From positions 7,014 through 71,013 of the forward strand of contig CAMIYN010000001.1 in the NCBI GenBank assembly GCA_946403075.1: a stretch of DNA of 64,000 nt, read 5' to 3'. The translations under genes were made by a program, and so were the position numbers. Source of the DNA: an uncultured Lachnospiraceae bacterium. Lineage in GTDB: Bacteria > Bacillota > Clostridia > Lachnospirales > Lachnospiraceae. The notes below the pieces were generated by a model. That model saw only the letters and a program-made list of their open reading frames with translations, was not told the DNA's origin and searched no databases. Positions 3,860-62,629 of this stretch are shown here, piece by piece. Every line of letters starts with the position of its first letter. Within the stretch, counting starts at the first letter, position 1.

Positions 3860-3903
3860 ATAGCTCTTCCCTACAAAATATTTTCCATATGATGCCTCTA
3901 AAT

Positions 3904-9223: not shown

Positions 9224-9224
9224 T

Positions 9225-9374: not shown

Positions 9375-9867
9375 TATATGTTTTCTCCATATAATTTTTT
9401 CATCACAAAATCCACTGTGTGTTTAATAGCTTCAGTTGCGATTCTCTTTGCACAACTTTTTCTGTATTCAACAGGGTCATATTGATAACAGCCCTCACAT
9501 CCTATTTCAGCACTATAATTCTCATTACCTTTATAATAGGGATATGGATTCCCTAATAAATTTTTAGCATTCCATCTTTTTTATCTATCCTTTCTTTATA
9601 TTGTTGTAGCTGTTTTTCATCCGGTATTGATTTAAATTTATTCTCTATGATATAAACATTTTTTTCATTGTCTTTTATTTGTAAATCAATATTGTTTTTT
9701 TCTCGGTATACACCTTCAAACTTATTAACATCAAATTTCTTAAAAAACACTTTAACAAAACTATGGTCATTTTCAATCAACCAAGCCCATCAATTTGAAT
9801 GAAATAACTCATGTGAATTATTACTTAGTGCTGGCATTATCATTAAATCATTTGTTTTCCTACTCAT
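9374..9867 (-). pseudogene. Disrupted PD-(D/E)XK-like nuclease gene (in-frame TGA plus frameshift)
   Basis: The gene starts at ATG 9867 (SD AGAGG): MSRKTNDLMIMPALSNNSHELFHSN. An in-frame TGA (9790-9792) interrupts it, and the same frame continues WAWLIENDHSF...NIDLQIKDNEKNVYIIENKFKS...IDKKDGMLKIY*. The rest (..RWNAKNLLGNPYPYYKGNENYSAEIGCEGCYQYDPVEYRKSCAKRIATEAIKH..) is in another frame. The frames overlap at a T6/A6 run (9577-9582). The HSN.WAWL and D...E.K motifs suggest a PD-(D/E)XK fold. Confidence 0.5.
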
Positions 9868-22954: not shown

Positions 22955-23153
22955 GGGCTCGTGATGCTTCGCCCCTACGATTAACTCTACTTTCTTGCTT
23001 CGGGCTCGTTTAGGGCTCCCACTGGTTCGCCCCTACGGCCCCTACGGTTAACTCTACTATCTTGCTATAGGCTCGTGATGCTTCGCCCCTACATTTTTGG
23101 GTTCGTCCCTACGACTAACTCTACCATCTTGCTTCGGGCTCGCGGTCTCCTAC
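22955..23153. repeat. Array of about five GC-rich repeat units filling the xseA-xseB intergenic gap
   Basis: Cores at 22955-22978 (GGGCTCGTGATGCTTCGCCCCTAC), 23013-23036 (GGGCTCCCACTGGTTCGCCCCTAC + GGCCCCTAC) and 23070-23092. Diverged copies at 23098-23135 and 23136-23153. Linkers are GATTAACTCTAC(T/A)(T/A)TCTTGCT. Confidence 0.9.
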
Positions 23154-23166
23154 GAAACCTACAATA

Positions 23167-25251: not shown

Positions 25252-25521
25252 ACGAAACTCCTTTTCTTTTAAGCTATTTATATAATACTACAAAAATTTT
25301 AATCTATAAGCCAATCTATTATTTTTTCTTTTTCTCACTACCACCAAAATCATTTATGAGTTTTTCACAATTTGTAAAATCAATACTCATAATTTCCCCT
25401 TTCGTTTGTTCTTAATAGTTTATCATATTTTATATATTTTGTTAATATTTTACACAAAGAAAAATAATGGTAAATAGCTAAATACTATATTAATTATTTG
25501 TTTTCATAAAAACATAGGTCT

Positions 25522-27635: not shown

Positions 27636-27886
27636 AGGTTCGCACCTATAATTAACACTACTATCTTACTATGGGCTCGCGATGCTTCGCCCCTACGATT
27701 AACTCTACTATCTTACTACGGGCTCGCGATGCTTCGCCCCTACAGACAACTCTGCTGTCTTACTACGGGCTCGTTTAGGGCTCCCACTGGTTCGCCCCTA
27801 CGGTCCCTACGATTAACTCTACTTTCTTGCTTATGAGCTCAAGGGACTTCCTATCGGTAGACAAGCCACCCTACGACAACATCCTG
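27636..27886. repeat. Array of GC-rich repeat units between rnj and the DUF1292 gene
   Basis: Perfect cores GGGCTCGCGATGCTTCGCCCCTAC at 27673-27696 and 27720-27743 (47-nt period). A type-b core GGGCTCCCACTGGTTCGCCCCTAC sits at 27778-27801. A partial copy is at 27636-27672 and a drifted copy GAGCTCAAGGGACTTCCTATCGGTAG.. at 27835-27886. Confidence 0.9.
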
Positions 27887-31716: not shown

Positions 31717-31856
31717 ACTATCTTGAAAAGGGCTCGCGTGCTTCGCCCCTACAACTTTCACTGCTATATTGCAAACGGGCTCCCAGTGGTTCGCCCCTAC
31801 GGCCCCTACGGTTAACTCTACTATCTTGCTTCGGGCTCGCGATGCTTCGCCCCTAC
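31717..31856. repeat. Three GC-rich repeat units between the TolC-like gene and eamA
   Basis: GGGCTCGCG-TGCTTCGCCCCTAC (31730-31752), GGGCTCCCAGTGGTTCGCCCCTAC+GGCCCCTAC (31777-31809), GGGCTCGCGATGCTTCGCCCCTAC (31833-31856). Confidence 0.9.
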
Positions 31857-47088: not shown

Positions 47089-47176
47089 TTGCTACGGGCT
47101 CGCGGTGCTTCGCCCCTACGGCCCCTACGGTTATCGCTACTGTATTGCAAGCGGGCTCGTGGTACTTCGCCACTAC
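47089..47176. repeat. Two GC-rich repeat units at or just past the 3' end of the giant ORF
   Basis: GGGCTCGCGGTGCTTCGCCCCTAC (47096-47119) +GGCCCCTAC, linker GGTTATCGCTACTGTATTGCAAGC, then GGGCTCGTGGTACTTCGCCACTAC (47153-47176). The ORF stop TAG is the complement of 47173-47175, inside the second core. Confidence 0.9.
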
Positions 47177-50100
47177 AATTGCAATATGATTCTGTTTTTT
47201 ATGATGCCCAAGTCATTTACTTCATACTCTACATTACCATATCTTACTTTTTCATTTATTGCCATCTCCCCTGTCTCTTTAAAGAAATAACTCTCCCCAT
47301 TTATAACTTTGATACCTGTTTCAATGTTTCCATCCCTATCAAAACTATAAATATTTATTTTGTTTCCTATCTTGATTTTATATATGCCATTTCTTAATTT
47401 ATCATCATCTATTATATATTGGAGTTTTCCATTTGCATCTATAAAATTGCCACTGTCGTATACTTTACTGTCTGTTAAAATGTTATTTACACTGACTGCA
47501 TACAACATATTTAATATGTTTTTTGTGGTTTCAAGGTTTGATTTGAAATTGCTACTGTCTTGCAATTGGGCTCGTGGTACTTCGCCCCTACGGCTATCGC
47601 TACTGTCTTGCACACGGGCTCCCAAAGGTTCGCCCCTACGGTTATCGCTGCTGTCTTGCACACGGGCTCCCAGTGGTTCGCCCCTACTATTTATTGGGGC
47701 TTCGCCACTACTATTTAGTTCGGCTTCACCACTACTGCTACTGCTTCCCATCGCATTACTTCTTCTATTGCTCATGTTATTTTCTCTAGTTGTCTGAACA
47801 TTTGGACCTGTAGATGTATTCATGCCTGTACCAAATGGAGTTACATTAATATTTACATATCCTAAACCTCCATCAAGTGTATATGCATATATATATATAT
47901 ATGTATAGTTGTCAAAAGCAGGTTGTCTATCCGTATATGCAGTACCATCATATACTATTACTTGTCCTCCATTCCCTGGTTTTTCTGTCCTTCTGCAAGA
48001 GCATATATATATATACATCATACCCTTATTAATAAATGAATGTCCATCCATATCTAAATCATAGCCATTTAAACAAATTCCTGCATATCCATTTACTGGC
48101 ATATCATCTGTAAGTTTTATATCTTCGGTAAGGAAGAAAAATCCCATTTTAGTACTTTGTGGGTTGTCAGCATCATAAAATGCTGTCTTTAATGCACTTA
48201 CTCCACCTTGAGTTAATGGTTCATATGCAAACTTGCCGACATTCCCTGATGTATCTTGCCCCTTACCATTAGTATAATGCTTATGTGTGTTTTCAAGTTC
48301 AGCTATCAATTCTATACTTCCATCTTTTATGTCTAACAACTGACTTACTGGCAAATCTGTTATGCTATTTGTGTCATCTGGCATCACATAATATCTAGCA
48401 GTTATTTGCCCATTTGCAAGTGCTGTATCTATTGCAGTATCCCCTACATTATTTATTTTATTAACTTTCCACCTATTTATTCTATATCCTGGTTTTCTAA
48501 ATACAGTTTGTCCAATAACATATCTTTGATAATACTTTAATTCTTGCGATACATCACTTCCACTTATCAAAGAATCCGTATTTTTTGTGAGTTTCAATGT
48601 GTATTTATTCTCTTCCCATACTGACACAAGGTTAACTGTATAATTATTATTATTATCGATGTTAATCTTAAAATTATCCGTTGACACATCATATGCTGTA
48701 TTTAATTTAAATGTTTTCGTTCCATTTGTATATCCTACAAGTGTAAAGCCTTTCATCTTCGCACCATCATCTGTGAAGGTTATTTTATTCCCCATTCCAA
48801 TACTTTGTGATGGAACACTAGTTTGGCTTGGTGTCTTGCTATTGCCATCCGATGCTATGCTTCCATTAATTGTAAATGAGAACAAAACTTTAGTTTCTTC
48901 CAAAATTGCTGTAAATATAATTGTTGCTCCATCCTCATTTATGAATTTTTGTATTTTTGCACCTGGATTATACTCGTTCCCAACCATATTATATAAATAC
49001 GAAATATCATTCCCACTCTTATTAAGTACTTTTGTAATCTTCCAACTTTTGATATAACAATTTTCTTTTTCTACGGCATCAGTAGATAATTCTATGCTTT
49101 TATAATATCCTACATTTATGTCATCTGTTACAGATAGAGTAGCACCTTCATCATCAGTATTGTATCTAATGTTATATGTCTTCTCAACCCATATAGCCGT
49201 AAATGTAATTGTTATTCCTGAATCTTCTACTCCCATCTCTATTAGTGATACCTCTGCATTTGGCTCATATTGATTGTCATTTATACTTGATTTCCACCCT
49301 ACAATTCTAAATCCTTCAAGTGTAAATGTATTGTCAGGTTTTAATTTAATTCTCTCACCCTCTACATCATTATATGTTATTGAACTATCACTTGGAGAAT
49401 ATTTTTCACCATTTGACCCTATCCCTTCACCTACATTATATACGAGATTGTATTTTATGCCTGCCAATGATTTCCCTATTATCAACTTTTCTTCGCCATC
49501 TATTATTGTAATCATTGTTGACAAATTCTTTCTAACTCCTCCTGTCTCGGCTCTTATTCTTTCCGTTGGATCTATCTCGTTCAATCCAAGAACTGTCTCT
49601 TCATTAAAGTTATTATATACTACTCCTGTATATGGATCAGCTAATGCTATTTCCATATCTGACTCAGCGAGTTTGAATTTTGAATTACTCTTAGTCTTCA
49701 TAAATCCATCATTTCTCAAACTATATACTTGATGTATTTCTCCATCACTCAAATTACCTATAACCTTGATATTTGCATCACCTATCTCCAAAAGTCCTTT
49801 ACTGCCTACCAACAATCCTGCCTTCTCCCCTGTTCCTACAAGGAATGTATTTTCACTTATATTTATTTGCCCACCTGCTTCAATTGTCCCATACATCTCT
49901 ACTGCTCCTTGCAAGCCATTTAGTGCTACAAACTCATTTCCTACTACATTTATTTCTGAATCTACTTGACTTATCCACTTTGTCCCCTCAGCAGTCCTTA
50001 TCGCATATTTTAAATTCTTATTATCTCTTATACTTACTTTTGCCATTTTTACATTTGTGATTGATTGGTTTATTAGATTTATTACTCCCTCTCCTATCCT

Positions 50101-53100
50101 ATAATTATCTTCTATTGCTATATCGTTCTCAAATTGTAAGGCAGTTGAATTTTCTATTTTGAATATATTTTCTCTTACATCCACACCACTTACTGACATT
50201 GTATTTATTGTGAGTTTTGAATTGTCTAATCTAACAAGATTAGAAAACTCCCCACCCTCTACTATAAATTCTGTTATATATTCATCTACATTTACTTCAT
50301 TTGCATTTATATCACTCAAACTTATTAGCATTTGAGTAGTCTTATATCCTACAAACTTAACTTTTGCAAGTGCAAACTCTACACCATTACCCACAATGAC
50401 ACTATTACTCTTTGTTCCAGTTGTTCTCTGTGTAAATGTTGCATTTATTGCTTTAAAACCATTACCATTTATTATTCTATCTGCTACTACATCTATCTCT
50501 GTCTTTCCATATATTCTTCCTTTTACACCAGTAAATACATTGTTGCTACCTAAGTTTGTATATACTGCCTTTTCTTCTTGACAGTTTGTGATTACCACTT
50601 CATACTGCGAACTTCCTGTTGCTTGGAATCTTACTCCTGTTAAGTTAAACCCATTTAAGCATATTACAAGTTTTCCCCTAACTGTTATCACTGTGTCAGT
50701 ATTCTTTGTTATATCTGTCCCAAGATAATAATACCCTTGTCCTCTTGTTATTGCTTGTTCTACACTATCTGTGTCTCTCCACTCTGCATATACTTCACTA
50801 TTACTTCTATGTTGTGCTACTCCTGTATGTTCACAATCAAGCTCATTTATTTGTCCACAATCTTTATGCTTATGACTTCCATCATCATCTACATATGTCC
50901 ATACTGCTCTCAGTACTACTGTTCCACCATTTACTCCTAACCATTCTCTTACTTCATCTCTTGGCCTAAATGTATTTCCTATCTGAACATTATTACTACT
51001 TACATTATTCCCATTTTTATCTATTATTCTCACTACTTCCCAGCTTGCTGATTTGTAATGTTCTCTTATAAAATTAGATGCTCTTATTATAACTGAATCA
51101 TAATAGTATGGCTCTTGTGTTTCTATTTTACCCTGTGCTGCTTCATGTCCTGATTCATATTCTATCTTATATGTATACTCCTCCCACAAACCATATAGAT
51201 ATACTACATCTACTCCATTTATAGTTTTTCTCGCATAATCCAAATCTGGTATAGGTGAACCTGCCATAAATGCTACTACCTTCTCTTCACTGTATGAAAT
51301 ATTTTCTATCGGAGTCCATCCCACAAACCTAAATTGCTTTGCTTCAAATCTATTATTACTCAACACCTGTGTACTCATTATTGATCTTACATCTTGTGAA
51401 TACTCATCCCCCTCTACTTCTACTGTTCCTCCTCTATGTTTTCTTGCAATTCCACCTCTATACACAATTCTATAACCTTGCACTGTTACTATTTTTACAT
51501 CATCTTCTTCTAGTATTACTGACAATAAATTATAATTATGAAGTCCTGTGTCTGCATTAAATACTTTCTTGTATTCTTCCCTTGCATCCTTGCCTTGTGT
51601 TATATGTTGATTGGTAAACTCTTTATATATTGTTCCAAGTGTTACATTCGTAAATGCCACTGTCATACTTGATTTTGTTGTGTCAAATCTACACCCTTCA
51701 TATGTCTCCAAAAAACCATTGCTATTATTAGCCAATACTTCTACAACTTGCCCAGTACTACTTTCACTTCTATTATTTTTTACATTTAAATATCCATTAC
51801 CTAGTTTTATCACAGAAGCACTATTGCCATCCACTAACCTTAGTCCTATTCCCCTTGTAGTAATGTAATTATTACTTATATCTAGATTCCCAAGAATTAT
51901 CGCTTCTCCATTATAATCTAACCAAAATATAGCATTATTCTCTACATAGTTATTCGCTGTTATTAATCTATTTTTAGTTATTAATATATCTGTATCTAGT
52001 GCTACATGTACATTCCCTGCTCCTTGACTAGCAACTATTGATACTATCCTTCCCCTTCCTGTATTTCCATTTATATCCAGTTTCTTTCCCTGTGTCATTG
52101 TAAATTTTGTAACCTTTAATATATTGCCAGTGTTTGCTGTATTATCTTTTATATCCAAATTTCCATCAATAGCGATTGTTCTTATGTCAAACAAATCACT
52201 ACTTACTGTGTTATTATTTATATAATTATCCCCATTAAATGTAATGTCTGTATTATAAAATATATTTCCTTCACTAACGACTTTCTCTACTACACAATCT
52301 TTTAATACCATTCTACTATCATTTATAACAAACTCATCTATATCACAATCATGAACACTTATTGTATCCCATACATTAAATGAGTTTAGAGCAAATGTAG
52401 CAATACCGCTTGCCTCTACTTGTATATCTACATTATATAATACTGTCGCACTTATTTTATTAAATATATATGCTATATTAGTTTTACTTGTTGTTATTTT
52501 TATTTTTTCTTTTCCACCATATATATTACAATACACCCCACTAAACATTGATAAATTGTTATCTTCATGATTAATTTCTATCTCTCCATACATATCTTTA
52601 CAGTTAGATAGATTTACTATTCCCTCACCATTTATCTCTATATTTTGTAGCATATTCCCCGCCAAACATATATTTAATTCTACATTGTTTGGAACTGTTA
52701 ATTCTGTTATCTTATCTTCTTCCCCTGTAATTTGTGTCAAAAATACATATATTTTACTTCCACTATAAGCATCTGCCACTCTTCTCGTTAAATCTTCTAT
52801 TGCAGCAATTGCTGTATATCTATAATTTGAACTATGACTATCTCCCAAATGATTGCAGCTTCCAGTTACACCACATACTTTATGTGTATGATTTGCATCT
52901 ACTGGCATCCAATTTACTTCAAGTACTACTACACTACCATCTCTCTCTGTAAGTCCACTCTTTTTCATATTAGACCCTATGAGCACTATCTCAGGACTTA
53001 TTACCTCTTCTACTTCTACTCCGTTTTTATCTTTATATCTTACCTTCTTTACTTTCCAACCATTTGCTACTGTCCCCTCTCTTGCCTCATATGTGTTTCT

Positions 53101-56100
53101 CTTTAATCTCTCATCAGCAAAATAACTTCCTGTATCATCATCCATTTTCTCTGTTGTCGTATATCCTGCTGTATATTCTATGCTATACTCTACTTCCTTC
53201 CATATTGCAAATACTGGTACCACTCCCCGCTTTGTCGCAAGACTCGGTATCTCTACTAATGGCTGATAGAGAGTTCCTGTTGTATCAGTCTCCTGTAAAC
53301 TCCAACCCATAAATGCAAATCCATCTGCATAATAATAATTTTCGTTTAATTTTACATTCTCATTTAACTCTGCTAATGTATTGCTTACTACTATTCCTTC
53401 ATCTAATTTAACTTCATGCTCATTTCCATTGAAATCTATTGCCCTTCCTTTGTTATATGTTATTTCATATTCTAGATTTTTCCATACTGCAGTCAAAACT
53501 ATTCTTGCTCCATCTATATCAACAAGTCCTTTTTCACTATTGCCTGTAAATCTTTTACCAAGTATTTCCGATTCTACTAAATCTTTTCCATCAGCATCAT
53601 AAATTTTTGTTATCGTCCAACCCACAAAATCAACTGTTTCTTGTTCTGGATACATATTCCTCAAATCAATATTTTCATAATATTCATACTCTCCATCTCT
53701 AATTGTTACATCTATTATGTCTTCCCTTCCAGATTTAAACTCCAAGTTATATTTCTTGTTAGCCCATACTGCTGTAAGAATTATCTCGCTTAAATCATTA
53801 TTTATACCATCTTCTACTACTTCCCCAACATTATACCTATATCCATTTTCACTTACCCAACCTACTACCTTAAATCCTGCAGCTTTTATTATTTCTGCAT
53901 TTTCTTCTGTTAAATTTGTGCTTAAAACTACACTATCTCTATAATAGGCTATCTGATCAGGGTGTTCTCCCTTTGGTATTACATCTGAACCCCCAACACT
54001 TATCACTTCTGATCTATACTTTATAGTATATGTCTTTTGCTCCCATATTGCATATATAAGTATTTCTTCATCATCCTCCACTTCTTCAAATGCAGCCCGT
54101 CCTTCTCCTGGCTTTGTTATATCGCTTTTACCATTTTCATCTACACCTTCCTTATAAGGGCTCCAACCTACAAGTTCAAAACCATCTACCATATATGGAT
54201 TCTCCGTCTTATTTAAAAATGTTATCACTCCTCCTAACGACTCTACTTCTTTTATATAGTTATCAGGTCCACTTATATCTCTTATACTACCATCTCTCCC
54301 CTTTGCTACTCCTCTTTGATAATTTAACCTATACTTTCTATCTATCGCTTCCCCAGGTATTCCTATCCTTATATCCTTTGTCTCTGTTACATATACTACA
54401 AGCCCTTCATTTTCCCTAACTGAGTTAAATGAAATTCCTACCTGTTCTAATTTATTATTTTGCATTATGAGTCCTCTACCATTTGTCCTATTCGTGAATA
54501 GGACATCAACATCCATCTTGTTATCTGTTTCATTTCCTCTCATAAATGCTTTTACATTTTCACTATATATCCCTGCTCCTATCTTTTCCCCTATCCTACT
54601 CTTTACATAACCATACTCAGTAAAGTCAAGATATGCTGACTTCGTTAGATATATCCCTGATAATATTCCACTACTTAAATCTGTATAATTACTATATTGA
54701 TTATTTATTAACTCTAATCCTGCTCCCTTAAAATATATACTACTATCATCTGTTACTTCCACTATCCCTTGTGGACTCTTATTACTATTAATTGTATTCT
54801 GCTTTATCTCAAATTTATCCCCTACTATATAAATATTCTTTACATCATTCCCTACTGATATTATCTCTCCATTAAATGTTGAATTATTTATACTTAATCC
54901 TGACACATAAAAATCATCAGCACTCTTTATTAATTTACTTCCACTATCTACCTTTGCTTTTAAACTTGTCTTCTCTATCACTACTTTACTTGCTTTCTCT
55001 ATGAAATTTGCATTATTTTTTAATTCAAAATTTCCATCAACTCCATACATCCCTATTTCTCTATTTGTATTTATGAAATATCCATCTACTCCATTTACTG
55101 TTATTCCTTTTCTTCCCATTACATAGATTTTTAAATTATCTCCTATCTTTACATTCGTTAACTTACTTTCCTTTGGCTCTCCATTATACTCACAATTTAC
55201 CAAATATAAAATCCCAGAACCTGTAAAGGTTACATTTGTCAATGAATACCCTGATAGACATAGTGATACTTCATTATTTATTGCCACCTCTTGATTACTT
55301 ATATCTCTACTCAGTGAAAATGCACGGCTTTCATTATTAATATCACTTAATGCATTTATTGCTTTATATTTATATCTTGTTGTATGTTCCTCCCCTATCT
55401 CTTTACAACTTATAGAACAACCTTCCTTTACTCCACATAATAAATGTGTGTGCATATTCTCTATTACTACCATTTCCTCTATCTTGTATTCATTTACTAT
55501 TAAATTCTTATAAAGATTTGTATCTGCTTTAAACATTTCTCTATATTTTGTGACATCCTCCACTGTCTCTTCATTCCAGTTCGTTACTATCGTGCCACTT
55601 CCATCATCAGTAGAAAATGCTACTGTCATCTCTGTGTCCTTTGATAGTTTACCACCTGCACCTTCTACTAACTCTATGAAGCCTTCGCTATTTTCACTGT
55701 AGACTTGATACATAACACCATTTGAATTTCCTTTATTATCTTTTACTTTTATAGTGGTATTACCTGCTTTTATACTCTGAGAAGACCCAAATCTCATAGC
55801 AGCAAATATTCTATTAGAAAAATTGTTTTCTGTTATCTTATTATTACTTATATTTAATTTTACATCATTTGATATATCAAATGCACCATCAGATGAATAA
55901 TCTACAATCGCTATATCTATATTTCCAGCTACGATAGTATTTCCACTTATATCTATACTACTATTTTTTATTGCTACACCATTTCCAATAGAAAGCATCC
56001 CTGCTCTCTCCACTTTAGAGTTTGCTATTTTTATATTTGATTTTTCAATGTTTACATTTTCATTCAATGCGACTAATGGATAATTTCGATTCTCCCCACT

Positions 56101-59100
56101 TATATTTATATCCCCTATAAATTTTACATTAGAAAAATCGTATAATATATTCTCACCATTTCCGCGATATCCACTTATATTTGTTTCACTTATTGTCCAT
56201 CCACTATAATTTTCACCATAATGCACTGCTTGTCCCAAATTCACCGAGCTGCTTGATGACGATAATTCTGCTCCACATACTACTGCTTTCTTGCCAAATG
56301 CCAAACTATCACACTTTACTATTATCCTACTTTTAAGACTTATTAAATTCTTTTCATCAATCTTGCCACACATATATCTTATATATATTCTATCACTATT
56401 TACACCCCTATTAAAATCAGCAAGCTCCCCATTTGTAGCATTTACTACTGCCTCATATTTGTCAGTTTCTGTTATCTCATATAAACTTTTTGAAGTATTA
56501 CTTGCTATCACTTCAACTGCGGATACTGGATAACCAGAACCTTGTGTCGTTGTTTTATATAGATACACAAAATTTCCTTCACTGCATCCTTCATTTAGAT
56601 TCCAAGCATTCCCATCAAAATCTGTTATCGCTACATAATCTTTATTTGATAATCCTGTAAAGTCTTTTGGGTTTCTACCATCATCATTAAACCATCTCTC
56701 TCCTATGCCCCAGATTGCTTCACTCTTATTCGTTGTCATTTGATACCCGAGATACAATTCTGCTCCATCTGTGCCTTGGTTTAAATTTGTCTCAAGCATC
56801 ACATATCCCTTACTATCAAATGTGCTTTTTGCAGTTTGTTTTGACATTTTTAGGATTTTTACATCTTTTATGTATTCGTCTGCTTCCGTTCTTTTTACTT
56901 CTACTTCTACCAATAATTTTTGTATTATATTAACTGTCAAATCTTCACTAAAAATATTCACTGAATCATTTTTTAAAGTTGCATTACTCTTTGTAAAACA
57001 GTTAACTATATTAACTTTTCCACTTCCTTCAAATGAAACTCCTTCTATTTTTTTCCCTCTTAAACACAAATTTAATGTTCCATTTACTGTTATAGTTTTC
57101 TTTTCCACTATATTTTGCTTTAGATAAAAATTACCATTGTCAACTATATCAGATATTTTAGTAACCCCTTCAAACAAGACCTCTTCATTTAAATCTATTC
57201 CATTATTTAAAAATTCTGTTTTTATCTCGCTTGAATGATTACATCTATTTTTTATACATCCACACAAACTATGTGTGTGTGTAGCATTATTCCACACTGG
57301 ATATAATATTATCTTTGACCCTATAGCGGCTCCTGGTATTCCTTTAGTAAGTTTTTCTCTCAACTCAAAATCTATATTATCAGAACCTTCTGTAAGGGTC
57401 CAACCTATCTGTTTTACTTCTTCTTCCTCACTCTGAATAGTCCACATCTTATCAAATAATGTTATAGATTTATCGATAGTAGCATATTGAATAATGCTTG
57501 TTTCTTGTCCATTACCCAAAACACTCTTCCACTCCATACTATCTGGTGCAGATAATCTATATTCTATAATATAATCTTTATTGCCTGCACTATAATCCCC
57601 TGGGAACCACATAGAACTTGGGCCGTAGCCACGACTACTAGGATTATACACCTGAAATTTAAAAGGCATAAGTGGATTATGATTATTAAAATTTGCTCTC
57701 GCCTCCCTTATAGGAAAATCATTATCTGGATAAAAAAATCCTTCTTTCCCATACAAGTAAGCCCAACTATATTGCTTCTTTAACTCATCATCTCCATAAA
57801 TTCTTTGCACATATCCTGGACGAGGAGAGTTGGGGTCGTCGACCCAGTACAAACCTGTTCCATCATATTTCTCAGGAGTGTCTTTGTATATTTCATACAA
57901 GTAGTTTGGTATCAGGTATTCATCGTTATTGTTACTTCTATGAGTTTTTAAAACAATACACCCCTCTCTCCCAAATCGATTATCTTTTGTGACATTACCA
58001 AATATTTGTCTCGTCTCATTTTTATCCTCATATACATATGAAAAAGTAATAGATGAATTCCCTTCATTTGCAATAGGACCACATCTTTTTACATCATCAT
58101 TTTCTAATTTAAATAAATGATCCTTCATAATAAAATAATGATTTCTCCAAGTATCATTTCTATAATTTATTAAAGAGAATGTTAGTCCAGCAAAATAATC
58201 CCTATACGAAGAAATACCTGCAGCACTCATATATCTATCAGGAAACTTTGGAGGCTCAAGAATTATCCAAGGGCTTATTAAACCTCTTTCCATTTCAGCT
58301 TTAGTTCTTCCTATTTCAAGTTGTCCATTTGTGATGTTATACCAATCTCTTAACATAATCACATCCAAAGATGTAGGTCTTATTACATGTGGATCATCTG
58401 TAGTGTGTATAAATGTTTTAAAATGAGTATCATAATTAAATATCCCTTCTACAGATGCAAGGGTATTATCCTTTATAACCAAAGAGCCACCTATTCGAGT
58501 GTCCGTTCCATTTAATCTCATACCAACTGGATATGATGTTGGAGAATACTCTCTACTCTCGTCAATATAGCATGGATTAATATTATAATTACATGTATTA
58601 TTTTGAATTCTGACACTTGCAACAGCCTGAATTGTAGTATAGAGTCTTGCACGATAAGGGCTGGCCTTTATCCATGGTCCCCATTCAACTTGATTTACTA
58701 TACTCCCATATCTTTCAATTGTATAATTTCTGCTTTTGTATATCAAACGAGATCCAATTGTACTATTATTCTCTATGTTTATTGCAGGTGCCCTGAGAGT
58801 GCAATCATAAACTTTTGCCGAAGTAAAATCTTGTACTATATCAATAGAATCCTTTAAATATATGTATTCAGCAAGCACACCATCCCCTACTATTGTACTA
58901 CTTGTCCTTGGTGTGAATACGATGTCAGCATAGTCAAGTGCTGACCCTTCACCCTTTTCTTCAAGTCTAAACTCCATTAAAGAATTCGCATCTTTAGGAC
59001 CTGGCACATATAAATCTCTCAATTCTCTAATTTCATCACCACTAATATACCCATATCCAATTTCCCACTGGTCTTCAGCTTTATTCAACCATTCTCTTAA

Positions 59101-62100
59101 TTCTCTTGATGGATCATAATGTATATAAGGATTATAATCAAAATACTTCCTATACTTTGCATTAATCACTTCTCTCACAAGATAATATTTGTTTTTTTGA
59201 TGACAATCGGAAAATGAAACTCCACATATTTCAACTTTAGGATGATAATTACCATAATCATAATAAGTGCCCTCAGCAATTTTCTCTGGATACAGATTTT
59301 GATTCCCATAATGCCAATATAAGCCTGAAGAACAATTTATAAATTTCACATCACTATGAAGAAAAGTATTCTCAACTCTATATATTTCCAAAATAGGTTG
59401 ATATGCTATAGTTTTTCCTTTATTTGTCATATTAAAATTCATAAATTTAACATCTTTTAAATAAACTTTGTTTAGACCATCAAATAATAGTGGAATATCG
59501 TTAGCAACACTAATCCTACCATATGATTTATAATTCATTTGAAAATCATTATAATCAAATACACAATTATATATATAACATGCTGGATGATTATTTAAGG
59601 TTCTAAAACTTCCTGGTCTTATGTGAACTGGTGCTCTAAATTTTATTCCTCTTAAACTCCATATAAAATTCGGTAGTTTATGTCCATACATATATCTACC
59701 ACACCACCCACAGTATCCTATTTTTGCTCGTTCACCACACTGGTATTTCCAGGGCTTATCCGGTTCCAAGATTGTTTCTCTCCATATATATTCCCAATCA
59801 TCTGCATCAACATATACATCACACCATTTTGTTAAACGATCACTAGTTGGCATAAAATCTATACAACCACGATTAAATTCTTGAGTTCCACCAGATATTA
59901 TACTTAACGAACCAAACCAAGCATTGGGCGAATAGAAAAAACAACTCTTTTCTGGGTTACTATATATTGTTGCTACATTGTTTTTACAGTTATATATATG
60001 TAAAGTAAACCATGGGTTGCCAACAACATAAAAATTTTTAATATTTTTTCCATTTAAGCAAATCGTCATTTCTAAAGAAATACCCCTTTTCAACGGAATT
60101 GGGATTTCACCGTTTACAAAAAAAGTATTCCAATCAAACATATCTTGATCTATATAAAATCGATTGTAGAAAGAAGTTGAGGTGCTATAGGGATGACCAC
60201 CACGAATAAAATGCTCATAATAATAAGCTTCATCATAATACCAATCGATATCCGATATATAATATGGAGTTTTAGGAAATGTAGATATTGGAGCATAATA
60301 ATACGAGTACTTTTTATGATAAGGGTCACCAAATGTCTCGTAAAACTTGTTATCTGCATCATTTTTGTATTTATGAGAACCACTTGAGGGAGTATGTTCA
60401 ACCTCTCCATATTTAATTCCTCTTTTTATATTTGGCAACTCAAAACCATCTTTTTCATTTTCTTCAATCTTCTCCCCATTATCTTCGACAGCACCAAGTT
60501 TTTTACTTCTCGCCACTGTCTCTACTTCTTGTTCACTACTACCCAATATCATTTTTCTAATAATTGTTTTATAATTTTCTATTACTTTTCCTAATACTTC
60601 TTCATCTTTTATATAATTGTTTATAGTAAATATTTTTAATTCATTTTCATCATATTCTTCAGCACCTTCACTTTGCAAAGGCAAATCATCTTGTAGAGAT
60701 GTCGCTTCCGTGTTAATCTCATCATTTTCGATGTTTTCATTTTCTACATACTCTATTTCTGATTTATCCATAGGGACAAAGCTATGTGATTCTTCCATCA
60801 CTTTTTCACCACTTATGTCATCATGTAGAGATGCTCCATCTATACCCACATTTTCTGCATCCGTTTTCGCACCATGCTCTCCATCATTTCCATACTTATT
60901 TTGTCTGTTTGGTACATGTATCGCACTGGACTCATCATTATTTATCTTCATATCATCACTATCGATGTTTTCATTTTCTAAATATTCTGCATCAGCCTCA
61001 AAAATGCTATATTCTTCATCAACTTCGTTTTTTGCATGTTCTACTTCGGGATCCCAAGGATTTGTCTCTTCTGTGTCTTCTTTTTCGTTTTCTTCTTTTA
61101 TTATCCCCTCAAGTTTTAATGCCTCATAACTTCTATCATATAATTCTCTCAAAACACTATTAGCAATTTCTGCTGGCATATATATTGAACTCAATTCTTC
61201 TTTACCAGTATAATTTTCATACTTATCTACACCACTACTTATTGCAGCCTCTACTTCTTTTATCAATCTATCCTTATCTAATTGAAAACTTATCTCAGCA
61301 TTGTTATCTTCATTTTTTATTGATTCTATAACTTCTTTTTCGTTATATATATTCTTCCACACTGCTGGGACAACTACTACTTTTTTAAGCCCATAATCAT
61401 CACTTATTACAACAGACACAATAGGACTGAGAAGTAGTTCTTCGTAAAGCAATGCTTCTTTTATTTCTTGTTCTTCTTTGTAAGGAACAGAAATCTCTTG
61501 CCTTTCATCTGTTCCTTGCATCAAAACTTTTACTATCTTCCAGTTATTTTCAGTTATTCCACTCTTTTGGTTTTTTATAAATAAATCTATATAGTTAGTT
61601 ATGTTTTCATCTATTTTTGTTTCATCATCATTATTTTCTATACTTGCTTCACTTGCTGTAGATGGTGAAGCAGCTGTGCCATTGTCTATAGTATTTATAT
61701 CGGGCACGGGGTACTTCACCTCTACATCATTTGGATTCGCCCCTACAACGGCATCTTCTGCATTTTCTATATTCTCGTTTTCTTCATTTGTCTCATCGGG
61801 CTCGCGATGCTTCGCCCCTACATTATTTTCGTTCGCCCCTACGACTTCGTTGTCATTGTTCTCATTGTCATCAGCGGGCTCCCAATGGTTCGCCCCTACA
61901 TTATTTTCGTTTGCCCCTACAACGGCATCTTCTGCATTTTCTGTATTCTCGTTTTCTTCATATTCCCCATCGGGCTCGCGATGCTTCTCCCCTACGGTGT
62001 TTGGGTTTGTCTCTACAGTATCATCGCTTTTGTTTTCCTTATTCTCATTTTCTAGATATTCTCCATCGGACACGGGATACTTCGCCCCTGCATTACTTGG

Positions 62101-62484
62101 GTTCTCCCCTGCAACGGCATCTTCTGCATTTTCTGTATTCTCGTTTTCTTCATATTCCCCATCGGGCTCGCGATGCTTCGCCCCTACGGCTTCTACTTCT
62201 ATATCTTCATCAATTCCATTTAACTCATCACTATTTTCACCTTCAGCAAAAAACTCACCACCTTCATTTGGTGCTGTGGTATTTGTATCTTCCACGGTTT
62301 CGCTACTACTATCACTTTTTGGTTTTGTGCTAGCAAGTGTTGACACAGCATTACTGCTTATCAACATACTTAATAGTAGCACAAAAGAGATAACTCTCTT
62401 TAAGTTACCCACAGTAAATATTTTTGCGGTAAAACTTTTTACTCCTTTTTTAATTTTTAAAAAGTTAGTCATATGTGTTTTCAT
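47173..62484 (-). CDS. Giant (5103 aa) modular secreted/cell-surface protein. Signal anchor, acidic repeat region, ~1000-aa Tyr/Trp/Cys-rich region, five HxH..CG...CL(N/S/R/A)G + beta-helix-like modules alternating with Listeria-Bacteroides (Flg_new-type) repeats, then C-terminal cell-wall-binding-like repeats
   Basis: A single uninterrupted 15.3-kb frame in a stop-rich AT genome, with strong SD AAAGGAGGT 7 nt before the ATG. N-terminal hydrophobic segment VISFVLLLSMLISSNAVSTLA. Repeated ..GF.(V/L)VGW.. ~70-aa units (e.g. GFELVGWSPYKEG, GFKVVGWVSENG, FRFVGWTPIE, GFRIVGWKSS, GFTLVGYTNG). The C-terminus ..NGESYFFKETGEMA.. resembles choline/cell-wall-binding repeats. Confidence 0.85.
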   Translation of the reverse strand: MKTHMTNFLKIKKGVKSFTAKIFTVGNLKRVISFVLLLSMLISSNAVSTLASTKPKSDSSSETVEDTNTTAPNEGGEFFAEGENSDELNGIDEDIEVEAVGAKHREPDGEYEENENTENAEDAVAGENPSNAGAKYPVSDGEYLENENKENKSDDTVETNPNTVGEKHREPDGEYEENENTENAEDAVVGANENNVGANHWEPADDNENNDNEVVGANENNVGAKHREPDETNEENENIENAEDAVVGANPNDVEVKYPVPDINTIDNGTAASPSTASEASIENNDDETKIDENITNYIDLFIKNQKSGITENNWKIVKVLMQGTDERQEISVPYKEEQEIKEALLYEELLLSPIVSVVISDDYGLKKVVVVPAVWKNIYNEKEVIESIKNEDNNAEISFQLDKDRLIKEVEAAISSGVDKYENYTGKEELSSIYMPAEIANSVLRELYDRSYEALKLEGIIKEENEKEDTEETNPWDPEVEHAKNEVDEEYSIFEADAEYLENENIDSDDMKINNDESSAIHVPNRQNKYGNDGEHGAKTDAENVGIDGASLHDDISGEKVMEESHSFVPMDKSEIEYVENENIENDEINTEATSLQDDLPLQSEGAEEYDENELKIFTINNYIKDEEVLGKVIENYKTIIRKMILGSSEQEVETVARSKKLGAVEDNGEKIEENEKDGFELPNIKRGIKYGEVEHTPSSGSHKYKNDADNKFYETFGDPYHKKYSYYYAPISTFPKTPYYISDIDWYYDEAYYYEHFIRGGHPYSTSTSFYNRFYIDQDMFDWNTFFVNGEIPIPLKRGISLEMTICLNGKNIKNFYVVGNPWFTLHIYNCKNNVATIYSNPEKSCFFYSPNAWFGSLSIISGGTQEFNRGCIDFMPTSDRLTKWCDVYVDADDWEYIWRETILEPDKPWKYQCGERAKIGYCGWCGRYMYGHKLPNFIWSLRGIKFRAPVHIRPGSFRTLNNHPACYIYNCVFDYNDFQMNYKSYGRISVANDIPLLFDGLNKVYLKDVKFMNFNMTNKGKTIAYQPILEIYRVENTFLHSDVKFINCSSGLYWHYGNQNLYPEKIAEGTYYDYGNYHPKVEICGVSFSDCHQKNKYYLVREVINAKYRKYFDYNPYIHYDPSRELREWLNKAEDQWEIGYGYISGDEIRELRDLYVPGPKDANSLMEFRLEEKGEGSALDYADIVFTPRTSSTIVGDGVLAEYIYLKDSIDIVQDFTSAKVYDCTLRAPAINIENNSTIGSRLIYKSRNYTIERYGSIVNQVEWGPWIKASPYRARLYTTIQAVASVRIQNNTCNYNINPCYIDESREYSPTSYPVGMRLNGTDTRIGGSLVIKDNTLASVEGIFNYDTHFKTFIHTTDDPHVIRPTSLDVIMLRDWYNITNGQLEIGRTKAEMERGLISPWIILEPPKFPDRYMSAAGISSYRDYFAGLTFSLINYRNDTWRNHYFIMKDHLFKLENDDVKRCGPIANEGNSSITFSYVYEDKNETRQIFGNVTKDNRFGREGCIVLKTHRSNNNDEYLIPNYLYEIYKDTPEKYDGTGLYWVDDPNSPRPGYVQRIYGDDELKKQYSWAYLYGKEGFFYPDNDFPIREARANFNNHNPLMPFKFQVYNPSSRGYGPSSMWFPGDYSAGNKDYIIEYRLSAPDSMEWKSVLGNGQETSIIQYATIDKSITLFDKMWTIQSEEEEVKQIGWTLTEGSDNIDFELREKLTKGIPGAAIGSKIILYPVWNNATHTHSLCGCIKNRCNHSSEIKTEFLNNGIDLNEEVLFEGVTKISDIVDNGNFYLKQNIVEKKTITVNGTLNLCLRGKKIEGVSFEGSGKVNIVNCFTKSNATLKNDSVNIFSEDLTVNIIQKLLVEVEVKRTEADEYIKDVKILKMSKQTAKSTFDSKGYVMLETNLNQGTDGAELYLGYQMTTNKSEAIWGIGERWFNDDGRNPKDFTGLSNKDYVAITDFDGNAWNLNEGCSEGNFVYLYKTTTQGSGYPVSAVEVIASNTSKSLYEITETDKYEAVVNATNGELADFNRGVNSDRIYIRYMCGKIDEKNLISLKSRIIVKCDSLAFGKKAVVCGAELSSSSSSVNLGQAVHYGENYSGWTISETNISGYRGNGENILYDFSNVKFIGDINISGENRNYPLVALNENVNIEKSNIKIANSKVERAGMLSIGNGVAIKNSSIDISGNTIVAGNIDIAIVDYSSDGAFDISNDVKLNISNNKITENNFSNRIFAAMRFGSSQSIKAGNTTIKVKDNKGNSNGVMYQVYSENSEGFIELVEGAGGKLSKDTEMTVAFSTDDGSGTIVTNWNEETVEDVTKYREMFKADTNLYKNLIVNEYKIEEMVVIENMHTHLLCGVKEGCSISCKEIGEEHTTRYKYKAINALSDINNESRAFSLSRDISNQEVAINNEVSLCLSGYSLTNVTFTGSGILYLVNCEYNGEPKESKLTNVKIGDNLKIYVMGRKGITVNGVDGYFINTNREIGMYGVDGNFELKNNANFIEKASKVVIEKTSLKAKVDSGSKLIKSADDFYVSGLSINNSTFNGEIISVGNDVKNIYIVGDKFEIKQNTINSNKSPQGIVEVTDDSSIYFKGAGLELINNQYSNYTDLSSGILSGIYLTKSAYLDFTEYGYVKSRIGEKIGAGIYSENVKAFMRGNETDNKMDVDVLFTNRTNGRGLIMQNNKLEQVGISFNSVRENEGLVVYVTETKDIRIGIPGEAIDRKYRLNYQRGVAKGRDGSIRDISGPDNYIKEVESLGGVITFLNKTENPYMVDGFELVGWSPYKEGVDENGKSDITKPGEGRAAFEEVEDDEEILIYAIWEQKTYTIKYRSEVISVGGSDVIPKGEHPDQIAYYRDSVVLSTNLTEENAEIIKAAGFKVVGWVSENGYRYNVGEVVEDGINNDLSEIILTAVWANKKYNLEFKSGREDIIDVTIRDGEYEYYENIDLRNMYPEQETVDFVGWTITKIYDADGKDLVESEILGKRFTGNSEKGLVDIDGARIVLTAVWKNLEYEITYNKGRAIDFNGNEHEVKLDEGIVVSNTLAELNENVKLNENYYYADGFAFMGWSLQETDTTGTLYQPLVEIPSLATKRGVVPVFAIWKEVEYSIEYTAGYTTTEKMDDDTGSYFADERLKRNTYEAREGTVANGWKVKKVRYKDKNGVEVEEVISPEIVLIGSNMKKSGLTERDGSVVVLEVNWMPVDANHTHKVCGVTGSCNHLGDSHSSNYRYTAIAAIEDLTRRVADAYSGSKIYVFLTQITGEEDKITELTVPNNVELNICLAGNMLQNIEINGEGIVNLSNCKDMYGEIEINHEDNNLSMFSGVYCNIYGGKEKIKITTSKTNIAYIFNKISATVLYNVDIQVEASGIATFALNSFNVWDTISVHDCDIDEFVINDSRMVLKDCVVEKVVSEGNIFYNTDITFNGDNYINNNTVSSDLFDIRTIAIDGNLDIKDNTANTGNILKVTKFTMTQGKKLDINGNTGRGRIVSIVASQGAGNVHVALDTDILITKNRLITANNYVENNAIFWLDYNGEAIILGNLDISNNYITTRGIGLRLVDGNSASVIKLGNGYLNVKNNRSESSTGQVVEVLANNSNGFLETYEGCRFDTTKSSMTVAFTNVTLGTIYKEFTNQHITQGKDAREEYKKVFNADTGLHNYNLLSVILEEDDVKIVTVQGYRIVYRGGIARKHRGGTVEVEGDEYSQDVRSIMSTQVLSNNRFEAKQFRFVGWTPIENISYSEEKVVAFMAGSPIPDLDYARKTINGVDVVYLYGLWEEYTYKIEYESGHEAAQGKIETQEPYYYDSVIIRASNFIREHYKSASWEVVRIIDKNGNNVSSNNVQIGNTFRPRDEVREWLGVNGGTVVLRAVWTYVDDDGSHKHKDCGQINELDCEHTGVAQHRSNSEVYAEWRDTDSVEQAITRGQGYYYLGTDITKNTDTVITVRGKLVICLNGFNLTGVRFQATGSSQYEVVITNCQEEKAVYTNLGSNNVFTGVKGRIYGKTEIDVVADRIINGNGFKAINATFTQRTTGTKSNSVIVGNGVEFALAKVKFVGYKTTQMLISLSDINANEVNVDEYITEFIVEGGEFSNLVRLDNSKLTINTMSVSGVDVRENIFKIENSTALQFENDIAIEDNYRIGEGVINLINQSITNVKMAKVSIRDNKNLKYAIRTAEGTKWISQVDSEINVVGNEFVALNGLQGAVEMYGTIEAGGQINISENTFLVGTGEKAGLLVGSKGLLEIGDANIKVIGNLSDGEIHQVYSLRNDGFMKTKSNSKFKLAESDMEIALADPYTGVVYNNFNEETVLGLNEIDPTERIRAETGGVRKNLSTMITIIDGEEKLIIGKSLAGIKYNLVYNVGEGIGSNGEKYSPSDSSITYNDVEGERIKLKPDNTFTLEGFRIVGWKSSINDNQYEPNAEVSLIEMGVEDSGITITFTAIWVEKTYNIRYNTDDEGATLSVTDDINVGYYKSIELSTDAVEKENCYIKSWKITKVLNKSGNDISYLYNMVGNEYNPGAKIQKFINEDGATIIFTAILEETKVLFSFTINGSIASDGNSKTPSQTSVPSQSIGMGNKITFTDDGAKMKGFTLVGYTNGTKTFKLNTAYDVSTDNFKINIDNNNNYTVNLVSVWEENKYTLKLTKNTDSLISGSDVSQELKYYQRYVIGQTVFRKPGYRINRWKVNKINNVGDTAIDTALANGQITARYYVMPDDTNSITDLPVSQLLDIKDGSIELIAELENTHKHYTNGKGQDTSGNVGKFAYEPLTQGGVSALKTAFYDADNPQSTKMGFFFLTEDIKLTDDMPVNGYAGICLNGYDLDMDGHSFINKGMMYIYICSCRRTEKPGNGGQVIVYDGTAYTDRQPAFDNYTYIYIYAYTLDGGLGYVNINVTPFGTGMNTSTGPNVQTTRENNMSNRRSNAMGSSSSSGEAELNSSGEAPINSRGEPLGARVQDSSDNRRGEPLGARVQDSSDSRRGEVPRAQLQDSSNFKSNLETTKNILNMLYAVSVNNILTDSKVYDSGNFIDANGKLQYIIDDDKLRNGIYKIKIGNKINIYSFDRDGNIETGIKVINGESYFFKETGEMAINEKVRYGNVEYEVNDLGIIKNRIILQL
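47176..47460 (-). other. C-terminal cell-wall/glucan-binding-like repeat region of the giant protein
   Basis: SGNFIDANGKLQYII..., NIYSFDRDGNIETG, INGESYFFKETGEMAINE, VEYEVNDLGII are degenerate aromatic-Gly ~20-aa repeats of the CW_binding_1 type. Confidence 0.45.
47551..47740. repeat. Three full GC-rich repeat units (exact 48-nt period) plus half copies, translated inside the giant ORF
   Basis: Cores at 47568-47591, 47616-47639 and 47664-47687. Half copies GGGGCTTCGCCACTAC (47697-47712) and GGCTTCACCACTAC. Translated as ..SRGEPLGARVQDSSDNRRGEPLGARVQDSSDSRRGEVPRAQLQDSS.. Confidence 0.9.
47887..48015. repeat. Two AT dinucleotide tracts, (AT)8 at 47887-47902 and (AT)6A at 48003-48015, inside the giant ORF
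   Basis: Read directly from the sequence. They encode ..TYIYIYAYT.. and ..MYIYICSC.. Confidence 0.9.
56370..56870 (-). other. Three-fold beta-prism-like (MABP-like) insert within module 1 of the giant protein
   Basis: Three similar segments: GYVMLETNLNQGTDGAELYLGYQ, DYVAITDFDGNAWNLNEGCSEGNFVYLYK, YEAVVNATNGELADFNRGVNSDRIYIRYM. The pattern (GY.v....(D/N)(L/F)N.G....YL.Y) recalls MABP/beta-prism repeats. From memory only. Confidence 0.3.
61702..62187. repeat. Six GC-rich repeat cores plus half copies embedded in ~190-bp tandem repeats, translated in the N-terminal acidic region of the giant ORF
   Basis: Perfect or near-perfect cores at 61798-61821, 61876-61899 (type b), 61972-61995 and 62164-62187. 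Diverged cores at 61702-61725 and 62068-62091. Translated as VGAKHREPDGEYEENENTENAEDA, VGANHWEP, VGEKHREP. Confidence 0.9.
62329..62484 (-). other. N-terminal signal peptide / membrane anchor of the giant protein
   Basis: A basic stretch (KIKKGVKSFTAKIFTVGNLKR) followed by hydrophobic VISFVLLLSMLISSNAVSTLAS. Confidence 0.6.
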
Positions 62485-62549: not shown

Positions 62550-62629
62550 AACTATCTTGCTTCGGACTCGTGGTACTTCGCCCCTACTATTTATTTGGGG
62601 TTCGCCCCTACGGCCCCTACGATTGCAAC
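62550..62629. repeat. GC-rich repeat unit(s) in the leader 70-145 nt upstream of the giant ORF start
   Basis: Linker ACTATCTTGCTTC, core GGACTCGTGGTACTTCGCCCCTAC (62564-62587), then TATTTATTTGGGGTTCGCCCCTACGGCCCCTACG. Confidence 0.9.

Follow-up and report, generated by a model that had tools for sequence, protein, structure and literature searches.

The giant ORF and its repeat arrays

The window analyzed here is a 64-kb stretch of contig CAMIYN010000001.1 from an uncultured Lachnospiraceae bacterium. It contains a giant open reading frame (ORF) in which an array of 48-nt repeats lies in frame near the 3′ end, and related repeats occur between genes of the window and in an aminotransferase gene (Table 1). 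The GC content of the window is ∼29%, and essentially all of its real genes are on the minus strand. The GC skew of the plus strand is −0.33, and gene direction and replication direction coincide here.

In the array under study, the short units occupy 47712–47735 and 47688–47711 (24 nt each). The cores of the longer units are found at 47664–47687, 47616–47639, and 47568–47591, with 24-nt linkers at 47640–47663, 47592–47615, and 47544–47567. A preliminary description of this DNA had reported cores starting at 47568, 47616, and 47664 with an exact 48-nt spacing, read as ...SRGEPLGARVQDSSDNRRGEPLGARVQDSSDSRRGEVPRAQLQDSS...; both observations were borne out. On the plus strand, the cores have the form GGGCTC..CCCCTAC, and in the frame of the giant ORF the region reads ...SSGEAELNSSGEAPINSRGEPLGARVQDSSDNRRGEPLGARVQDSSDSRRGEVPRAQLQDSSNFKS.... 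Tandem Repeats Finder (TRF) reports a period of 48 nt at 47551–47687, with 2.9 copies, 84% matches, and no indels. The reading frame of the array (GT-AGG-GGC-GAA, giving RRGE...) is referred to below as frame c, and the repeat-derived peptides predicted from the ORFs include GEPLGAR, VQDSSDNR, and HREPDGEYEENENTENAEDAVVGANENNVGAK. As had also been noted, the intragenic copies lie in a continuous, stop-free ORF, which is open for ∼4,920 codons before the array and for 125 codons after it. The first two 48-nt units differ at four sites, three of them synonymous, which is too few for inference from codon positions.

This array lies precisely at the boundary between the body of the giant protein and its C-terminal module. 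In a search with a 125-aa query, the sole homolog of this module was P0003, a 149-aa fragment with 63% identity. P0003 is encoded on a 501-bp rumen contig, where an in-frame TAA precedes the ATG by 9 nt and the DNA ahead of the domain is AT rich, with no array. The second intragenic array has a 96-nt period made up of a 24-nt core, a 51-nt acidic segment, and a 21-nt short unit. It is read as VGAKHREPDGEYEENENTENAEDAV..., and some of its copies are degenerate, with broken stems.

A further array begins on the stop codon of the giant ORF and comprises a core (47153–47176), a 24-nt linker (47129–47152), a half-core (47120–47128), and a second core (47096–47119). The stop codon itself, TAG at 47173–47175, is the TAG of the GTAG in the first of these cores, so that the repeat defines the end of the giant protein. 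A shift by one frame at 47173–47176 would carry translation on into this array for 27 codons or more.

A Pfam scan of the giant ORF returned no domain at E ≤ 0.001. The protein forms a singleton cluster in the protein collection, an exhaustive HMMER search retrieved only the protein itself and short fragments, and 1.8 billion representative proteins included no full-length relative. The C-terminal 700 aa gave no match in a word-index search, not even the protein itself, and this search was probably saturated by low-complexity words. When metagenomes of the Joint Genome Institute (JGI) were scanned for an ortholog, one distant match with 40% identity was obtained. The giant ORF shows internal self-similarity (for example, residues 3242–3900 against 3905–4560), with recurring "..KLVICLNG.NLTG.." modules, and it has distant matches to other large proteins such as P0002 (4113 aa, 27 matched stretches).

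Table 1. Positions of the repeat arrays and associated features in the window
Feature	Position	Strand	Description
Intragenic array under study	47544..47735	-	Two short 24-nt units, then three 48-nt units; 192 nt / 64 codons; frame c
Giant ORF	47173..62484	-	5103 aa; signal-peptide-like N terminus; repeat-derived segments near both ends
C-terminal module	47176..47543	-	∼122 aa; weak choline-binding / cell-wall-binding repeat similarity, below Pfam cutoff
Second intragenic array	61702..62187	-	Just past the giant-ORF signal peptide; period 96 nt; frame a (VGAKHREP)
5′-leader array of giant ORF	62564..62620	-	Half-core, 24-nt short unit (intragenic short-unit type), and GTACCAC-type core
Intergenic array on giant-ORF stop codon	47096..47176	-	Closest relative of the intragenic units; 48-nt period; GTACCAC core subtype in common with 47568-47591
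Intergenic array DUF1292 / RNase J	27637..27874	-	Period 47 = 24-nt core + 23-nt type-1 linker; reference array of the preliminary description
Intergenic array xseA / xseB	22955..23162	-	Genes 2 nt apart in the sister species
Intergenic array 471-aa ORF / EamA transporter gene	31730..31856	-	48-nt unit 31753-31800; core 24/24 identical to intragenic 47664-47687
Aminotransferase N-terminal extension	11757..12054	-	Class I/II aminotransferase, ORF 10556..12094; repeat-derived

The repeats belong to a dispersed family with a common unit

The 12-mer TTCGCCCCTACG (≤2 mismatches) has 32 matches in the window, all on the plus strand, against 0.51 expected, and none of 100 shuffled sequences equaled this number. 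The repeat is therefore real and part of a dispersed family. Its unit anatomy was found at eight sites across the 64-kb window, and 18 of the 32 core matches are intragenic. On the sense (minus) strand, the 24-nt core reads GTAG-GGGC-GAA-(2 nt)-NNN-(2 nt)-GA-GCCC, or, as a consensus, GTAG + GGGC-GAA-SY-NNN-RS-GA-GCCC, and is followed by a linker. The tag is GTAG in most copies of the window and ATAG or GCAG in a few. Two linker types occur: type 1, GWAGYAAGATAGTAGAGTTAAYC, is 23 nt long, gives a period of 47 nt, and is present at 27637–27874, 22955–23162, and 31810–31832; type 2, ∼GYKTGCAAKAYAGYAGYGAWARYY, is 24 nt long and gives a period of 48 nt. Truncated units (GTAGGGGCC, 9 nt) and short units of 20–24 nt, such as GTAGGGGCGAACCCCAAATAAATA, are also found, and the lengths of non-coding units are 9, 20, 47, 56, and 58 nt. 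In the aminotransferase ORF, repeat units in two frames make up a predicted N-terminal extension of ∼115 aa, which contains 21-nt short units (SGENDNR), two full frame-c cores (RRGEALRAQ), and a truncated frame-a core (11757–11764).

In every case in the window, the arrays are head-to-tail and co-oriented with the genes. Each of the five intergenic arrays is flanked by co-directional genes, and four of them begin 0–20 nt past the upstream stop codon. A 9-nt tandem duplication, GCCCCTACG GCCCCTACG (sense GTAGGGGCC GTAGGGGCGAA), was seen at four arrays (23029, 31793, 47112, and 62604), always directly 5′ of a core, as though the half-core were a standard module of the array. Searches against Rfam gave no known RNA family at gathering thresholds across the window and none at E ≤ 1 across the 47-nt array, and no terminator-like site was detected near the intragenic array. 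A literature search with the exact core sequence returned no paper.

One DNA sequence is read in two frames

The core can be read in three ways. In frame a (GTA GGG GCG AAG CAT CGC GAG CCC), it gives VGAKHREP; in frame c (GT-AGG-GGC-GAA-...), it gives (R)RGEALRA or RGEPLGA, and hence the peptides RRGEALRAQ and RRGEPLGAR; in frame b (G-TAG), it gives a stop. All three outcomes are present in the window: frame a at 61702–62187, frame c at 47544–47735 and 11757–12054, and frame b as the stop of the giant ORF. Both open frames are used within the giant ORF, and both within the aminotransferase ORF. Coding and intergenic copies can be identical: the coding core at 62164–62187 matches the intergenic cores at 27720–27743 and 31833–31856 at 24 of 24 positions, and the coding core at 47664–47687 matches the intergenic core at 31777–31800 equally well. 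Since the same DNA yields two unrelated peptides, these are by-products of what is primarily a DNA repeat; identity of up to 24/24 between coding and intergenic copies likewise indicates that the DNA repeat came first and that the peptides followed. A chimeric peptide query covering both frames found no match at E ≤ 0.01 in 5.8 billion sequences, although the query is too short and repetitive for this to carry weight.

The ORF-compatible 48-nt unit also occurs between genes

The preliminary description had proposed that an intergenic unit of 47 nt becomes exactly 48 nt when it is coding. The linkers on which this rested were correctly given (GGTTATCGCTGCTGTCTTGCACAC, 24 nt, intragenic; GATTAACTCTACTATCTTACTAC, 23 nt, intergenic). 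They are homologous, with 16 matches and one gap, a score that was equaled in 1 of 2,000 shuffles. TRF likewise finds a period of 47 nt at 27639–27773, and the intergenic period-47 array closes in every frame, as had been stated, all three within ∼30 codons. What is not supported is a conversion upon becoming coding, because the 48-nt unit is also intergenic. The linker at 47129–47152, which lies outside the giant ORF, is identical to the intragenic linker at 20 of 24 positions without a gap (none of 2,000 shuffles scored as high), and the intergenic linker at 31753–31776 is identical at 17 of 24. The intergenic 48-nt units 47129–47176 and 31753–31800 are stop-free in frames a and c. With a 24-nt linker subtype that is already intergenic and stop-free, a change from 47 to 48 nt is not needed. 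The GTACCAC core subtype is found only around the giant ORF (in the array at 47096–47176, at 47568–47591, and in the 5′ leader at 62564–62587). From these sequences, the ORF-compatible 48-nt subtype appears either to pre-exist or to be exchanged with neighboring intergenic copies. All that selection has to do in coding DNA is remove units with lengths not divisible by three.

The core forms a short hairpin with compensatory changes

The 24-nt core is an imperfect palindrome able to form a stem-loop, as in the GTAG-tagged repetitive extragenic palindromes (REPs) discussed below. RNA minimum free energy folds of three core subtypes have the form ((((...((...))..)))), with energies of −10.6, −10.1, and −7.3 kcal/mol; tandem G·A pairs are predicted beside the outer stem, and the 2-bp inner stem occurs as GC/GC, CC/GG, or GT/AC. 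Covariation was assessed in 29 distinct cores from the window and from loci of related metagenome-assembled genomes (MAGs). The outer stem is fixed by the search pattern and so carries no covariation information, but the inner 7 nt are free of that constraint. In the inner stem, 93.7% of cells were paired, and eight cells, distributed over both inner pairs, were double-compensated. None of 500 shuffles reached the covariation score of this stem, and controls with a slid register were 11.5%–49% paired.

The arrays are lineage-specific and vary between strains

The comparison loci comprised conspecific strains (L061–L064 and L067), a 22-kb syntenic locus of a sister species (L066), and an 83%-identical aminotransferase ortholog (L068). 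Across syntenic genes, proteins of L061–L064 are 95%–99% identical to those of the window. L066 comes from a rumen metagenome (European Nucleotide Archive, WILK20 scaffold_1204); its RNase J is 87% identical, and gene order is kept from the resistance-nodulation-division (RND) pump to the Fumble-family gene. No half-core (≤2 mismatches) was found in the 22 kb of L066. The gaps between DUF1292 and RNase J, xseA and xseB, and ORF470 and EamA are 12, 2, and 44 nt there, versus 346, 255, and 264 nt in the window, where they are filled with arrays. The lack of copies and the near-zero gaps in L066 indicate that the arrays are lineage-specific gains in the lineage of the window.

The aminotransferase orthologs of L061–L064 (95%–96% identical) differ from that of the window only in the repeat region, where there are indels of 21 and 33 nt. 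Through the 33-nt indel, a frame-a core loses its 3′ part, so that other strains have VIVGAKHCEPNLEFSNNINKK where the window has VIVGANINKK. In the more distant L068, full cores stand in place of the 21-nt short units of the window, and the indels are of 6, 15, 6, and 21 nt. All of these indels are multiples of three, a limit that does not apply to the non-coding units, and we therefore argue that the extension is under coding constraint. The DUF1292/RNase J array of L067 has the same number of units as that of the window but different core subtypes, which indicates rapid conversion or turnover. Unit number thus varies for the 21-nt units of the aminotransferase gene and is constant at DUF1292/RNase J in the one strain, L067, where subtypes vary.

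Species-representative genomes were scanned with the pattern GGGCTC-N7-TTCGCCCCTAC, and what follows applies to the matches listed. Multiple loci were found in the low-GC rumen MAGs CAMJKC01, JAFSKG01, JAFWVX01, JAGBKB01, OMRR01, and CAMYZE01, which are labeled Lachnospiraceae, Clostridiales, or Clostridia. Their cores are tandem and often inside long ORFs, where they are always in sense orientation and in frame a or c. Because L068 derives from the ENA sample that also yielded the CAMJKC01 MAG, the organism of the window is probably related to that "uncultured Lachnospiraceae" bin. Single matches in high-GC genomes are at chance level.

Cores of the form GTAGGGGCGAA-N7-GAGCCC were also seen at many loci, in cyanobacterial Scytonema MAGs (L012, L014, L017, L030, L033, L040, L042, L043, L047, and L052) and in an acidobacterial Blastocatellia MAG (L007, L011, L018, L021, and L022). 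Their inner sequence and flanks differ, and the pair in L022 is inverted, in the manner of REP doublets forming hairpins (REPINs). Judged by sequence, these are probably separate GTAG REP families with a common tag and outer stem.

Origin of the coding repeats

We consider it highly probable that a lineage-specific, GTAG-tagged, REP-like DNA repeat gave rise to the 48-nt repeats at 47544–47735, which would be copies of it translated in frame. In the proposed scheme, a selfish or structural repeat would seed and expand beside stop codons. Two of the three frames of its core are open, and its type-2 unit, at 48 nt, is stop-free in both, so that an ORF can accommodate such units as low-complexity linkers or as extensions at its ends. 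The giant ORF would have acquired one array past its signal peptide (frame a) and the other between its body and the cell-wall-binding-like module (frame c). Arrays would then grow, shrink, and swap subtypes through slippage, unequal recombination, or gene conversion, and only changes of multiples of 3 nt would survive inside genes. We infer a selfish or REP-type element whose spread is either recombinational or driven by a single-strand DNA mechanism like that of REP-associated tyrosine transposases (RAYTs), and we take its peptides to be tolerated spacers rather than functional motifs. Transposition of single-stranded DNA by a RAYT would be compatible with three features: the GTAG tag, the hairpin, and the position of the GTAG strand on the leading-strand sequence, which is the lagging-strand template (PMC6006769). 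Local spread could also be accounted for by slippage or recombination alone.

Several observations weigh against this interpretation. No Y1 transposase or RAYT was present among the Pfam-scanned ORFs of the window (64 kb only) or in the Pfam annotation of syntenic orthologs, and a RAYT motif scan of the window and comparison-locus DNA was negative. In the window and in related low-GC loci, all copies are head-to-tail on one strand, unlike GTAG REPs, with no inverted dimers of the REPIN or bacterial interspersed mosaic element (BIME) kind. The hairpin has little stability when folded as DNA (−3 to −5 kcal/mol; two subtypes have z-scores close to zero), and its stem of only 4 + 2 bp falls below the 5–13 bp of REP families (PMC3733652). 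The case for translation of the repeats comes from ORF continuity and in-frame indels, both read from sequence. The protein and JGI metagenome searches found no ortholog of the giant ORF, and translation of the aminotransferase may start at an internal methionine (MLELGS), downstream of the extension.

The preliminary description had left open whether a non-coding repeat was exonized or a coding repeat had decayed between genes. The use of two frames, the 24/24 identities, and the sister species without the family clearly favor exonization. Under the opposite view, the unit began as a protein repeat, such as a linker motif of a surface protein, and the intergenic arrays are its decayed remnants. 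The share of core matches that are intragenic (18/32) would suit it, as would the intergenic units at 47096–47176 and 31730–31856, which are open in two frames as a recently pseudogenized coding repeat might be. That one DNA sequence gives unrelated peptides in two frames already largely refutes it. Moreover, it is the intergenic copies that come closest to the consensus, and their hairpin is preserved through compensatory changes; the arrays lie between unrelated housekeeping genes (xseA/xseB and DUF1292/RNase J) that abut in the family-free sister species, and the peptide query, short and repetitive as it was, gave no protein family. We regard a coding origin as very improbable. Misassembly of a metagenome contig at the repeats, with an ORF that is really interrupted, is harder still to credit. 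The source is apparently a metagenome assembly, in which the giant protein forms a singleton cluster on one 131,280-bp contig, and repeats are error-prone in short-read assemblies. Nevertheless, the ORF stays open on both sides of the array in DNA of 29% GC, the downstream module has an independent homolog in the same frame, and the analogous coding array of the aminotransferase is reproduced in four independent assemblies. With units of 24 or 48 nt, a miscount would in any case leave the frame intact.

Two further proposals deserve more weight. The repeat could be a functional RNA element that protects mRNA 3′ ends, marks sites of operon processing, or acts as a translation brake, with intragenic copies kept for their function in mRNA. 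All 32 copies of the window and nearly all copies in related MAG loci are co-oriented with transcription, the arrays lie directly past stop codons, the RNA fold is consistent across subtypes and covaries, and GTAG REPs are considered to function mostly at the RNA level (PMC3733652). Orientation, however, separates RNA-level from DNA-level causes only where gene and replication directions differ, and here they coincide. An intergenic core at 1207–1230 of L046 (RUG816, a related rumen MAG), the only clear exception to co-orientation among the loci compared, runs opposite to the genes on either side and also to the GC skew of the locus. The two directions coincide in nearly all loci compared, and L046 is discordant with both. 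The sister species also manages without arrays at identical operon junctions, and neither an Rfam match nor a terminator-like site was found. On balance, an RNA function seems rather unlikely. The other proposal, a special case of the preferred reading as an in-frame DNA repeat, is that the C-terminal module (47176–47543) was once a separate downstream gene, with the array in the gap between the two genes, and that, on loss of the upstream stop, the stop-free 48-nt array became an interdomain linker. Arrays normally lie 0–20 nt past an upstream stop between co-directional genes, type-2 units flank the module on both sides (47544–47735 and 47096–47176), the GTACCAC subtype is confined to the surroundings of the giant ORF, the 63%-identical P0003 is preceded by an in-frame TAA and AT-rich DNA rather than an array, and the module is also found N-terminally in unrelated proteins, such as P0014. 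Against this, the contig of P0003 is just 501 bp and includes ∼22 nt of poly(A), where assembly errors are easily made, no true ortholog of the giant ORF emerged in the searches made, and insertion of an array into a pre-existing interdomain linker fits the data equally well. On this thin evidence, such a fusion seems less likely than not. A broader version, in which the lineage-specific REP-like element of low-GC rumen Clostridia exists only as head-to-tail arrays co-oriented with transcription on stop codons and, owing to a 48-nt subtype without stops in two frames, acts as a ready-made "fusion linker", is put forward tentatively and is, in our judgment, doubtful. If true, intergenic DNA would have been converted repeatedly into protein, as N-terminal extensions and interdomain linkers; a downstream cell-wall-binding gene would have been captured onto a 5,000-aa surface protein; and there would be a general route to gene fusion and to the origin of disordered linkers.

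Relation to known repeat systems

The closest likeness is to the GTAG-tagged REPs (Di Nocera et al., 2013, PMC3733652; for REP/RAYT, PMC2817692), with which the repeat of the window has in common an unpaired GTAG before a short, GC-rich, imperfect palindrome. The GTAG-3 simple elements have the same layout of a stem, non-complementary di- or trinucleotides, and a short loop flanked by GC (PMC3733652). As in the 64 kb analyzed here, sub-families of GTAG REPs differ by compensatory stem changes, copies are dense and lie between unidirectional ORFs, not far from where the upstream ORF ends, and tandem reiteration of clusters includes their conserved spacers. GTAG REPs are mostly intergenic, near the 3′ end of the upstream ORF, but are sometimes intragenic, encoding up to 82 aa (PMC3733652). 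The differences concern the host, a low-GC rumen Clostridia lineage (the GTAG-REP paper nowhere mentions Firmicutes or Clostridia, PMC3733652), and the stem of just 4 + 2 bp; REPs are, furthermore, typically inverted dimers (PMC3733652). Unlike REP/RAYT systems, the 64-kb window shows no RAYT gene, and, unlike in GTAG REPs, an unusually large share of copies lies in ORFs, where they would be translated in two frames.

Rickettsia palindromic elements (RPEs) provide the parallel for the coding copies. They too are selfish palindromic repeats that are found both between genes and in frame in unrelated genes, and the ORFs that receive them stay intact and gain peptide segments (PMC10969869, PMC3733652). 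RPEs, however, are single insertions of ∼100–150 bp with long palindromes and one conserved peptide each, whereas the unit of the window is 47–48 nt, has a 24-nt hairpin core, is tandem, and is read in two frames; the two are unrelated in sequence and come from different phyla. RPE-like in-frame copies are found here at both ends of the giant ORF, in the aminotransferase gene, and in ORFs of related MAGs.

Regular, short, partly palindromic repeats of ∼24 nt with ∼23-nt spacers also resemble a CRISPR array, but the family has just two to four units per array, scattered over many sites, some of them coding. A CRISPR array was ruled out because the "spacers" are conserved linkers, both within and between arrays. 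The mycobacterial interspersed repetitive units (MIRUs) that Supply and colleagues described in 1997 are reported to be direct tandem repeats of ∼46–53 bp between operon genes, oriented with transcription; reportedly, they vary between strains and touch the stop and start codons of flanking genes. The periods of 47 and 48 nt at xseA/xseB, DUF1292/RNase J, and other junctions of the window, all in sense orientation, resemble these MIRUs. Unlike the repeat of the window, MIRUs are not known to have a GTAG-plus-hairpin core and are not typically deep in large ORFs. A further difference is that the one intergenic array compared between strains here varied in subtype content but not in unit number.

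Significance

The coding copies are a new example of a known phenomenon, the presence of REP- or RPE-type repeats in genes, and not a new system or mechanism; intragenic REPs and RPEs have already been documented. Their interest lies in a poorly studied, uncultured rumen lineage, where an intergenic hairpin repeat and its copies in ORFs can be compared base for base, in two frames, and where a repeat-free sister genome and polymorphic strains are at hand as controls. They extend GTAG-type, REP-like elements to low-GC Clostridia, and they indicate that such repeats can supply stop codons, N-terminal extensions, and interdomain linkers. In the annotation of these MAGs, GC-rich "RRGEALRAQ" and "VGAKHREP" segments should be regarded as repeat-derived. 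Contigs are likely to break at the arrays, and care is needed with start-codon calls upstream of them.

Other features of the window and comparison loci

RNase J (25522–27549 in the window; 10001–11974 in L066) has a Lys/Asn-rich N-terminal extension of ∼120 aa upstream of its metallo-β-lactamase domain. This extension is not repeat-derived, and it has a 23-aa indel relative to the sister species. Between the RNase J and Asp23 genes, L067 carries a gene with a HipA_C domain (toxin-like, 3196–4104), where the window has only a 270-nt gap (25252–25521). At 8225–9780, the window has a gene for a D12-class N6-adenine DNA methyltransferase, followed by a 75-aa ORF with a partial match to PD-(D/E)XK nucleases. 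Together they may represent a restriction-modification pair in decay, although the conservation of the methyltransferase in strain L061 is 99.7%.

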